64,000 nt of DNA from SAR324 cluster bacterium (GTDB lineage: Bacteria > SAR324 > NAC60-12): the NCBI GenBank assembly GCA_015232315.1, contig JADFZZ010000021.1, forward strand, positions 2,006 to 66,005. Reading direction: 5' to 3'. Below the pieces are notes generated by a model. That model saw nothing but the letters and a program-made list of their open reading frames with translations, was not told the DNA's origin and made no database searches. This document shows, in pieces, positions 10,501 through 16,808 of the stretch (its first letter is position 1; each line of letters begins with the position of its first letter). A program made the translations under genes and the position numbers.

Positions 10501-13500
10501 ATCGAAACCTGCCGGGGGTAAGGCTTAATGGCGGTGGCAACTTTTTCTTTATCCGCGAATACCGCCACCATCTCACCGTTTCCGGGCAATGCCTGCATCA
10601 AACGCCCTCGTTCCGCGATCAATTTCAGGCCATCCTCCAAACTAAAGACTCCCGCCACACAGGCCGCGACATATTCACCAACACTGTGGCCCATCACATA
10701 ATCCGGTTTAATCCCCCAGGATTGCCACAATTCCGCAAGAGCATATTCGAGGGCAAACAAGGCAGGTTGGGTGTAAGCGGTCTCATCCAGGGGTGAGGTT
10801 TCTTTTCCCTGTTCCGCTTTGTGGGACGGATAAAGCACTTCTAACAACGGCTGTTCCAGATAATCGCGTAAAATCTCGTCGCAACGATCCAGAGTTTTAC
10901 GGAAAGTAGGTTGTGTTTCATAAAGTTGCCGCCCCATTTCCACATATTGAGATCCCTGTCCGGTAAATAAAAAAGCGATAGGGGGACTTGGAGACCGAAC
11001 CGTTGAGGTTTTCACGTCGGCAAGCGCGGTGCGAAATTCCTGAGAGGATTTAGCTACCACAGCAAGGCGCTGATCAAAATGGACTCGCCCTGTATTTGCG
11101 GTAAAACAAAGATTCGCTAAGGATGTCTCTGGATGAGTGGCTAAAAAGGTGTCGTAACGTCTTACTAAATCTTGTAATGCCGCCTCACTTTTTGCGGAAA
11201 GTGTCAGTAGATGCTGTGGACGTTCCAGTGTGTTATGGACGGGGGCCATCGCTGGAGCTTCTTCCAGGATCACATGAACATTGGCGCCGCCGATACCCAG
11301 GGAATTAACCCCGGCCCGGCGCGGAATTCCATTGGTTTCCCAAGCACTGAGTTTCGTGCTGACATAAAAAGGACTCTTGGCGAAATCAATATTTGGATTC
11401 GGATTTTCAAAATGAAGACTGGGCGGAATCTGCCGGTGCTGTAGCATCAGCACTGTTTTAATAAAACCCACGATTCCAGAAGCGATTTGAAGGTGTCCCA
11501 CATTGGTTTTAACAGAACCAATGGCACAAAAACCTGTTTTATCCGTAGTCATTCGAAAGGCTTGAGTGAGTCCGCCCACTTCAATGGGATCTCCCATGAT
11601 GGTACCGGTTCCATGTGTTTCCACATAAGTCACGGTATCCGCGGTGATGTTGGCTATCGCCATCGCTTCAGCGGCCACTTTGGCCTGTCCCTCGCCACTG
11701 GGCGCCAGATATCCGAGTTTCATCCCGCCATCATTATTGACGGCAGAACCTTTAATGACTCCATAAATTTGATCACCGTCCGCAAGGGCCTCTTTCAGGC
11801 GTTTCAGGGCCACCATGCCAGCGCCGCTTCCAAATATGGTTCCTTCCGCACGCGCGTCAAACGCCCGACAATGTCCATCGGGAGTCACGATCATTCCCTC
11901 TTGATATAAATGTCCGATTTTTTGTGGAACCTGGATGGAAACACCCCCGGCTAACACTATATCACACTCCCCTGTTTGCAGGCTTTGAACACCGGCATGA
12001 ATGGTCAACAGCGAGGTCGAACAGGCGGTCTGAAGATTGACGCTGGGGCCACGCAAATTGAGCTTATAGGAGACACGGGTGGTCAGATAATCCTTGTCGT
12101 TGGCGACCATCAACTGGAAACCGCCCATGGAGTCCAAAGTCATCACACTGAGATCATCATGGGTATCCAGTTTGTGTCGATTGGGATAAATATTATTCAT
12201 TAAATAAGTATTCATCGCCGCACCCGCATAGACGCCTACCAACCCCTCATAAGTGATCGGATTATAACCGGCATCTTCCATACATTCCCAGGAACATTCC
12301 AGGAGCAGGCGCTGTTGAGGATCCATCAATTCAACTTCTCTGGCGTTAAAACCAAAAAACCCAGCGTCGAAGGATTCAATATCGGACAGGATGGGATTGG
12401 CCCTGACATAATCGGGATTGTGGACCAGGTCCGGGTCTACCCCGGAAGCGATGACTTCTTCCGCGGTAAAAAAGTCAATGGATTCAACTCCATTTTTCAG
12501 ATTTTGCCAGAATTCATCCAGATTTTCCGCACCCGGAAAACGGCAGGCCATGCCAATCACAGCGATATCAGAATCATTAATTGCCGCACGATTCGCACGA
12601 ATCTGTGCTCTTGCGTAGCCTTGCTGAGCCGCTGTGTGTTTTTGGAGGGATTGGGATTGACTCAAATGACTGGCCAGGGTCGCAATGGTCGGGTAATTGA
12701 ACATGTCCACAATAGAGAGTTGTATGCCGAGTTTTTCCTCTAATTGAGTTTGAGTTTGAACCAATAATAAAGAATGTCCGCCCAATTCAAAGAAATTCTC
12801 ATGCACTCCCACTTCAGGTACCCCTAAAACCGTTTGCCAGATTTGAGCAATCTGCTGTTCAAGGGAAGAGCCTGGGACGGCTTGCCCTTTGGGTTTGCCG
12901 GAAACGTTGTTGTGGGCCAGTTGAATTCTGTCAATAGCACCGTCCTCTGTTAACGGCATTTGAGGTAATTGGACAAAATGGCATTCCGTTGGTGTTTGGA
13001 AACGGTCCGGTACCGTCGTGGGTAATTGGGATTTTGAGAAGTCGTTGCCAGTGGTTGTGAAATACCCGGTTAGTTTCTGCACGGATATAGTGTCTGACTC
13101 CATGTAACGGCGAAGGTGGGGAGTATTGCCGTCTAAACCAATGAACAGTTGCGATTGTTGATAGCGTAGCCCGATCAGTAATGAAACCAATCCTTGTTTG
13201 GCGGTAATGGGGTAATATCCGTGAGCACGAAGGGTATCTTTCATCCGTGAATGACGATTCATTCCTGTGTCGCCCCATAAGCTCCAGTGAAAGCAATAAC
13301 TTCGCAGGTGACATTGATAGTTTTGATAATGAGAAAAACTCTCGAGAAAGCGACTTGCCGCAGAAAAAGCACCCACCGCCGCGCCGCCAAAGAAACTATT
13401 CACGGAGGAAAAGTTGATGAAAAGACTCCCAGGCTGATGCTTGATGAGTTGGTGGAGATTCCATGTTCCCAGCACTTTGGGACTCAGCAGGGCTGAAAAA

Positions 13501-16808: not shown

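Follow-up and report, generated by a model that had tools for sequence, protein, structure and literature searches.

Among the described alpha-keto-acid loading modules, those of the A-KR-PCP class combine an adenylation (A) domain, a ketoreductase (KR) and a peptidyl carrier protein (PCP). In the structure of StsA, about 30 N-terminal residues and about 70 residues located after the KR build together a pseudo-Asub domain, Asub being the C-terminal subdomain of A domains (PMC10510592 section 2.2.5). A 2026 study described degenerate ancestral A domains (Ax) upstream of embedded keto-acid-type ligases (KALs), in which partial Ax regions keep the late A motifs and, in modules of the CrpD-M2 type, a helical element completes the pseudo-Asub (PMC13643306). 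Ligases for keto acids are marked by a hydrophobic residue at the Asp235 position and by Gly-Met where A domains for amino acids have Gly-Pro (PMC11253843 section 2.5), the former being also used as a KAL mark in PMC13643306. Loaders of the AerA type are predicted to load phenylpyruvate and to reduce it to phenyllactate (PMC3252866). The present analysis concerns the loading region of a megasynthase encoded in a 64,000-nucleotide stretch, hereafter the window, of the SAR324 cluster bacterium assembly GCA_015232315.1 (contig JADFZZ010000021.1, positions 2,006 to 66,005 of the forward strand). Residues 1-1384 of this protein probably constitute an initiation module of the keto-acid A-KR-PCP class (StsA/CesA/AerA) with a dead KR, which would pass on its starter unreduced and would stand midway to the loss of the KR. 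The module class is known, and the presence of an A-subdomain relic at the N-terminus and the order of the domains are ordinary for it; the new and moderately interesting part is the catalytically dead KR, together with its place beside KR-less loaders in the KAL tree.

The open reading frame (ORF) of the megasynthase extends from 4551 to 16808 on the minus strand (4085 aa). Its listed start is a TTG and the frame closes seven codons 5' of it (4092-codon stop-to-stop frame), therefore the N-terminal relic cannot be part of a longer upstream domain. The start that fits the family is probably the ATG codon for residue 5 (16796), where the homologues begin with MQLDNY. In a search of the PDB, residues 104-1380 are collinear with residues 18-1303 of the A-KR-PCP module of StsA (6ULW, E 1.4e-251). 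This end-to-end alignment agrees with the resemblance to A-KR-PCP alpha-keto-acid loading modules noticed in the original prediction, which was made from the DNA letters and their translations. Conversely, the position of the KR after A10, by which the prediction had set the region apart from these modules, is found in exactly that order in the solved StsA module, and because of this alignment a KR following the ligase's own A10 is regarded as the normal layout. The 3' part of the gene encodes, according to Pfam, a single PKS (polyketide synthase) extension module and then a terminal condensation (C) domain. The megasynthase is organised as follows:

16521-16781, minus strand: relic of an ancestral A domain (Ax remnant), residues 10-96 (PF13193, phmmer on the PDB, AlphaFold2, Foldseek, 106/120 homologues)
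16419-16520, minus strand: probable N-terminal piece of the split pseudo-Asub, residues 97-130 (StsA alignment and literature)
14634-16238, minus strand: keto-acid-type adenylation domain (KAL, or Ak), residues 191-725 (PF00501, E 4.5e-51; matches to McyG and StsA-A)
13929-14591, minus strand: KR structural half, residues 740-960 (PF21394, E 6.7e-22)
13164-13886, minus strand: KR catalytic half, residues 975-1215 (PF08659, E 1.1e-37; StsA alignment)
12924-13121, minus strand: putative C-terminal piece of the split pseudo-Asub, residues 1230-1295 (LgrA and StsA alignment)
12657-12881, minus strand: carrier domain (PCP), residues 1310-1384 (PF00550, E 2e-18; GGHS site)
4551-12656, minus strand: remaining megasynthase, ketosynthase (KS), acyltransferase (AT), dehydratase (DH), KR, methyltransferase, acyl carrier protein (ACP) and C domain (Pfam domain table)

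The PCP, delimited by Pfam at residues 1318-1382, carries the phosphopantetheine serine in its GGHS motif and matches the PCP of McyG with 62.9 bits.

The two-part KR (PF21394 at residues 758-922 and PF08659 at residues ~985-1180) is located between the ligase Asub and the PCP. Aligned to the active KR of StsA, its motif GAFSAAS faces GAYCAAN: Phe replaces the catalytic Tyr (Y1148F, codon TTT at 13365-13367), Ser replaces the YxxxN Asn (N1152S, codon AGT at 13353-13355), and K1111, S1135 and the NADPH motif GGLGGIG are kept. The original prediction was thus right in reading the loss of the Tyr near nucleotide 13365 and the retention of the catalytic Lys and Ser. The Tyr is conserved in 118 of the 121 aligned family members and in all 38 further KRs retrieved by a KR-only search (156/159 in total), and the Asn of YxxxN in 120/121; a KR lacking the Tyr is confirmed by these alignments as rare. 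In a leave-one-out count, only three of the 59 strongly conserved positions of the catalytic half deviate, two of them being the Tyr and the Asn, which indicates damage specific to the active site and not a general decay, and agrees with the predicted role of a non-reducing, structural domain. The structural half deviates at 8/39 conserved positions, and the ratio of its identity to that of the KAL is the lowest among the 121 sequences. In PKSs, loss of the active-site Asn defines reductase-incompetent KRs and loss of Ser or Tyr the fully inactive ones; by these usual criteria the present KR is very probably reductase-incompetent (PMC7327777). With neither the catalytic Tyr nor the Asn of YxxxN left, reduction of the loaded acid is not expected, and the domain is probably needed for structural reasons.

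Two other explanations bear on this change. The KR could still reduce its substrate by means of another proton donor or of a shifted active site, and deliver an alpha-hydroxy starter as AerA and StsA do. The preserved NADPH motif, Lys1111 and Ser1135, as well as a catalytic half that is not globally decayed, are consistent with this possibility, but we judge it very unlikely, considering the replacement of both Tyr1148 and Asn1152, the conservation of the Tyr across the relatives and the complete elimination of the KR by the closest KAL relatives. An alternative Tyr was sought in the KR; the nearest one belongs to a family-conserved HYQ motif 13 residues downstream, which stands beside a normal Tyr in all the other sequences. 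The Tyr-to-Phe change could alternatively result from a sequencing or assembly error, as TAT and TTT differ by a single base. This is scarcely believable in view of a second, independent active-site change four codons away (AAY to AGT, N1152S) and of phylogenetic neighbours without any KR.

The adenylation domain that precedes this dead KR appears fully equipped. The PF00501 match at residues 195-572 extends over profile positions 2-384 of 384 (E 4.5e-51), the motifs A3, A5, A7, A8 and A10 read from the translation are intact, and the domain has a core, a C-terminal subdomain and an A10 lysine (Lys704) of its own, the last position being held by Lys in 120/121 sequences; none of the 46 conserved positions of the KAL subdomain deviates. 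It had been predicted as a complete AMP-binding domain of the fatty acyl-AMP ligase (FAAL) type, of which the completeness holds and the FAAL type does not. Among solved structures it is closest to McyG (4R0M, E 3e-205) and to the A domain of StsA (6ULX, E 3.5e-161), whereas true FAAL structures such as 3PBK, 3KXW and FadD32 match only at E 1e-44 to 1e-27, and PF23024, the DIP2/FAAL-like C-terminal region, reaches 24.3 bits at residues 609-720, below its 27-bit cut-off. AntiSMASH labels the domain as 'CAL'. The Val of LDHVGA occupies the Asp235 position, aligned to I306 of StsA and to the corresponding Val of McyG, and FGMSET aligns to FGMSEI of StsA, with the Gly-Met of the A5 region kept (G414-M415 in StsA). 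Since the matches to McyG and StsA far exceed those to FAALs and both keto-acid hallmarks are present, the domain is considered a KAL. Its intact motifs suggest that it is active, adenylating a carboxylic acid and loading the PCP. Family membership points to an arylpyruvate, another 2-oxo acid or an aryl-substituted acid as a possible substrate, and the resemblance to McyG to a possible phenylpropanoid-type acid (PMC3252866; PMC11209926).

The relic at the N-terminus is recognised at several levels. Residues 20-87 match PF13193 (AMP-binding_C) with 25.2 bits for a cut-off of 24.5, and residues 12-104 match C-terminal subdomains of NRPS (non-ribosomal peptide synthetase) A domains in the PDB (phmmer, E 7e-10 to 1e-6). 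AlphaFold2 models a helix-strand-strand-helix-strand fold with a predicted local distance difference test (pLDDT) score of 83-95 over residues ~11-80 and of 78 for residues 81-90. When this model was compared with the PDB by Foldseek, the 50/50 matches listed were adenylate-forming enzymes, GrsA being the best among them (1AMU, E 9e-7, root-mean-square deviation of 3.1 A over 80 columns). The predicted A8-A10-like nature of this segment is supported by these domain matches and by the modelled fold. Extending from the end of A8 to A10, it covers nearly the whole C-terminal subdomain, resembles canonical NRPS A domains and shows, as predicted, a Gln (Gln88) at the position of the A10 Lys; across the 121 sequences, this position is occupied by Gln in 79 and by Lys in 8, making Gln the family consensus. 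Examination of the gene start in relatives revealed the same relic at the same N-terminus in 106/120 homologues, whatever their gene neighbours. Within the loading region, the relic and the structural half of the KR have diverged most.

The relic is followed by residues 97-130, likely the N-terminal piece of the split pseudo-Asub according to the alignment with StsA, in which residue 104 faces residue 18 of StsA, and to the literature. This piece comprises a predicted helix at residues 102-113 (AlphaFold2 pLDDT only ~66-69) and a conserved VAVV segment. The C-terminal piece aligns to the A9-A10/PCP junction of LgrA and to StsA 1194-1220, and carries the A9/A10-like FVQLPQMPLTEDGAIDRIQL, with Ala1291 at the position of the A10 Lys (Glu in 81, Ala in 20 and Lys in 5 of 121 sequences). 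Pfam detected neither piece, and scanning the two joined together gave no AMP-binding_C match. These flanking relics probably correspond to the published pseudo-Asub and Ax remnants (PMC10510592 section 2.2.5; PMC13643306).

The position of the module among its relatives was analysed with a neighbour-joining tree (numpy, 100-200 bootstraps) of 87 KAL domains rooted on StsA. The module groups with the KR-less proteins P0121, P0122 and P0124 at 196/200, and this group is nested in a clade (186/200) with P0001 and P0002, which have the relic, a Tyr-containing KR, a PCP and a KS, and with the truncated P0123, in which the relic and the beginning of a KR are present. The ligase domains of P0121 and P0122, the closest ones in a KAL-only search (KAL 74-76% identical), are directly joined to PCP-KS, and their PCP-KS-AT-DH part continues at 52-63% identity. 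In the module, ~560 residues of KR and putative pseudo-Asub separate residue 726 from residue 1284, two points that these relatives join directly; the KR and the N-terminal relic were looked for in the DNA of the KR-less relatives, and no trace of them was found. The loci of the nearest KAL relatives (L002-L006) are different clusters without KR. Elsewhere in the data set, Tyr-to-Phe KRs occur only in P0009 and P0018, which have the KR-less P0173 and P0195 as sisters (200/200), and KR-containing and KR-less forms are interleaved across the whole tree.

In P0009 and P0018 the KR motif reads GAFAAAN, with Phe for Tyr and the Asn kept. On the metagenome contig of P0009, the one examined, a stand-alone C domain follows and genes for an aminotransferase, a radical SAM protein and a 2-hydroxyacid dehydrogenase are located nearby. 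P0132 (879 aa) displays another intermediate architecture, its N-terminal Asub relic being kept and its ligase joined straight to the PCP without KR.

Because KR-containing and KR-less forms interleave and the Tyr-to-Phe lineages are sister to KR-less ones, a repeated loss of the KR passing through a dead KR can be proposed, and the dead-KR module looks like an intermediate in the repeated change of A-KR-PCP loaders into KR-less KAL-PCP loaders of the McyG kind. The broader scenario, in which the McyG-type KR-less loaders themselves arose repeatedly from A-KR-PCP modules, first by inactivation of the KR and then by deletion of the KR with both pseudo-Asub relics, is advanced tentatively and is rather doubtful. 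If true, such loaders could have retained the activation of alpha-keto acids, for example arylpyruvates, and could deliberately preserve the 2-oxo group. This would open a chemical route to the one-carbon truncation by which the phenylacetyl unit of Adda and cryptophycin is derived from a phenylpropanoid-type starter, a step whose mechanism is described as unknown in PMC3252866. The occurrence of active, dead and absent KRs within one well-supported clade, together with a second independent lineage, gives a picture of the remodelling of loading modules, and the same pattern links the McyG-type loaders to keto-acid chemistry.

Several points weigh against the interpretation of the region as a keto-acid loader with a dead KR on its way to KR loss. 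The KAL tree is a distance tree on one domain in which many sequences are contig fragments, and the sister relation of the module to P0121/P0122 alone is found at only 128/200. Close orthologues of the module were not retrieved, the best identity being 54% over the module and 48% in the KR-only search, and the inactivity of the KR is a call made from the Tyr-to-Phe change. The substrate of McyG-type ligases is itself disputed (phenylpropanoids in vitro; PMC3252866). Finally, a chorismate pyruvate-lyase-like gene and a ligase gene lie directly upstream on the same strand and could provide another starter. The two genes of this cassette that matter most here are:

16862-18301, minus strand: stand-alone acyl/aryl-AMP ligase, 479 aa, in the neighbouring cassette and outside the loading region (Pfam and NCBIfam)
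21090-21353, minus strand: stand-alone carrier protein, 87 aa, with a GLDS motif (motif scan and ORF list)

The best match of the ligase among small-molecule ligases of the PDB is 4-chlorobenzoate-CoA ligase (1e-18), and the chorismate pyruvate-lyase-like gene (18352-18918) adjoins it on the same strand. The 87-aa carrier, unannotated, is located between a sulfotransferase gene and a HemN-like radical SAM gene, and is the likely partner of the 479-aa ligase. It belongs to a block shared with L007, a contig labelled Deltaproteobacteria bacterium TL4, of which positions 4328-11409 have ~80% DNA identity to window positions 16857-24368. The L007 block contains genes for a radical SAM/SPASM protein, a 175-aa ORF, two sulfotransferases, the carrier, the HemN-like radical SAM protein, the chorismate lyase and the ligase; the latter is 77% identical to that of the window and has no adjacent megasynthase. 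The homology ends 5 nt past the ligase stop codon and an unrelated convergent gene follows. In the window, the GC content is ~39-44% in the cassette genes versus 45-49% in the megasynthase, aminotransferase and reductase genes, which suggests that two units of different history were joined here. A genome scan with the ligase yielded three loci (L007, L008 and L009), none of them with this megasynthase. L008 (Cyanobacteria bacterium UBA11372, 2630-7400) associates a ligase homologue with a sulfotransferase and a stand-alone thioester reductase 57% identical to that of the window, and L009 (Iningainema tapete, 9944-17142) has a ligase 58% identical, a HemN-like gene, glycosyltransferases and a C-PCP-TE (thioesterase) protein without A domain.

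These comparisons bear on the origin of the N-terminal relic. The original prediction derived it from the upstream ligase by fission or duplication, and placed after it a FAAL loading domain and an inactive KR (KR0) in an unexpected position. The two are indeed physically adjacent, as had been noticed: the ligase stop codon lies at 16862-16864 and 54 nt separate the A10 motif of the ligase from the relic, which is the only point in favour of this model. The relic and the C-terminal subdomain of the ligase, however, have no similarity detectable by BLASTP (E = 15, in the wrong region), and the ligase and megasynthase genes do not share a reading frame. Moreover the relic is family-wide with Gln as consensus at the A10 Lys position, the ligase cassette is found on its own elsewhere, and the adenylation domain is McyG/StsA-like rather than FAAL-like in a domain order identical to that of the solved StsA module. 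The synteny with L007 also breaks exactly between both genes, and the descent of the relic from the ligase is rejected; the model as a whole can hardly be correct. As the cassette has its own carrier and occurs without the megasynthase, the adjacency is better explained as the junction of two separate units.

The same cassette underlies the main rival to a functional KAL: the KAL-KR0 block would be vestigial, and the upstream ligase would load the PCP in trans with 4-hydroxybenzoate formed by the chorismate lyase, the true starter. The proximity and common strand of both genes and the dead KR are consistent with this scenario, and the L009 ligase, encoded near a C-PCP-TE protein lacking an A domain, makes the loading of carriers in trans plausible for this ligase family. 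It is nevertheless weakened by the ligase's own 87-aa carrier and by the stand-alone cassette of L007, which is without any PKS and whose homology stops at the intergenic spacer. In addition, the KAL keeps every catalytic motif without deviation in its subdomain, and the KR-less relatives have the same KAL as sole loader. We therefore hold loading in trans to be unlikely.

Under the preferred reading of a keto-acid loader with a dead KR, the KAL would adenylate a carboxylic acid and load it onto the PCP, and the KR, devoid of the Tyr and of the YxxxN Asn, would no longer reduce it. The dead KR would most likely persist as a scaffold holding the pseudo-Asub and the PCP, and the starter would pass unreduced from the PCP to the KS. 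The upstream ligase would be an unrelated neighbour, probably serving its own carrier protein. The product logic of the cluster (aminotransferase, stand-alone thioester reductase, terminal C domain, sulfotransferases and HemN-like radical SAM protein) is suggestive, not decisive. For automated annotation, the combination of FAAL/CAL and KR may lead to the misprediction of an alpha-hydroxy or fatty-acyl starter, where the data rather indicate that a keto-acid-type ligase loads the starter and that it stays unreduced. A module naturally dead in its KR and structurally intact could also be a useful template for obtaining alpha-keto instead of alpha-hydroxy building blocks.

Other features of the window were recorded. 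Megasynthase residues ~3280-4085 (window 4551-7300, minus strand) include a methyltransferase between the KR and the ACP, the usual place of O-methyltransferase domains. The megasynthase ends in the C domain with no carrier after it, an unusual logic of release, and a class III aminotransferase gene (3165-4514) and a stand-alone thioester reductase gene (1987-3168) lie downstream. A second NRPS-like locus on the plus strand (42845-47432) encodes an A-PCP-reductase protein (1085 aa) and then a class III aminotransferase (435 aa); speculatively, an amine used by the megasynthase's terminal C domain could come from this locus. On the same strand (22682-26593), the 175-aa ORF, a radical SAM/SPASM protein and a 625-aa sulfatase adjoin the two sulfotransferases, hinting at a sulfation/desulfation system associated with the aryl cassette. 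An IS5-family transposase gene is found at 53284-54162 on the minus strand, and a DAHP synthase gene (aroFGH type) at 55104-56258 on the plus strand could feed the shikimate/chorismate supply of the cassette.

Compared with known systems, the module is closest in organisation to StsA and to CesA module 1 (stratospherulide and cereulide; 6ULW, 6ULX), which have the same succession of KAL with its Asub, two-part KR and PCP, the putative N- and C-pieces of the pseudo-Asub standing here at the corresponding places before the KAL and after the KR. The alignment with StsA covers 1277 residues and includes, in both proteins, the Gly-Met and a hydrophobic residue in place of Asp235. They differ in the KR, GAYCAAN in StsA having become GAFSAAS by loss of the Tyr and of the Asn, in the N-terminus, StsA beginning at about residue 87 of the present protein and lacking the 90-residue Ax relic, and in the acceptor, which is an NRPS condensation domain for StsA and a PKS KS here. 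The cyanobacterial stand-alone A-KR-PCP loaders of the AerA type (~1400 aa) are 48-54% identical over 98-100% of the region, including the relic and its Gln. They keep the Tyr and the Asn (118/121) and are mostly separate proteins, whereas the present module has a dead KR and is fused to KS-AT-DH-KR-MT (methyltransferase)-ACP-C. McyG-type loaders (KAL-PCP-KS, microcystin, 4R0M) provide the best KAL match (E 3e-205) and have the same Val at the Asp235 position. Unlike the present module, McyG as well as P0121/P0122 have neither the N-terminal relic nor a KR between the ligase and the PCP, and McyG falls in a different sub-clade of the KAL tree. The C-Ax-KAL-KR-T modules (T, carrier domain) Dol15D-M2 and PyrG, and the four-domain CrpD-M2, have likewise a degenerate ancestral A domain upstream of an embedded KAL (PMC13643306), with the difference that the C domain is absent here and that only the Asub part of Ax is left; inactivation and loss of the KR are not discussed in that study. 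The present KR finally resembles the C-type KRs of modular PKSs, which have lost the Asn and the Tyr and keep their fold as a structural domain (PMC7327777). The C-type KRs are parts of PKS extension modules and work on beta-keto groups, whereas the KR described here belongs to an NRPS-type loader of alpha-keto acids and has its Ser, Lys and nucleotide motif preserved.

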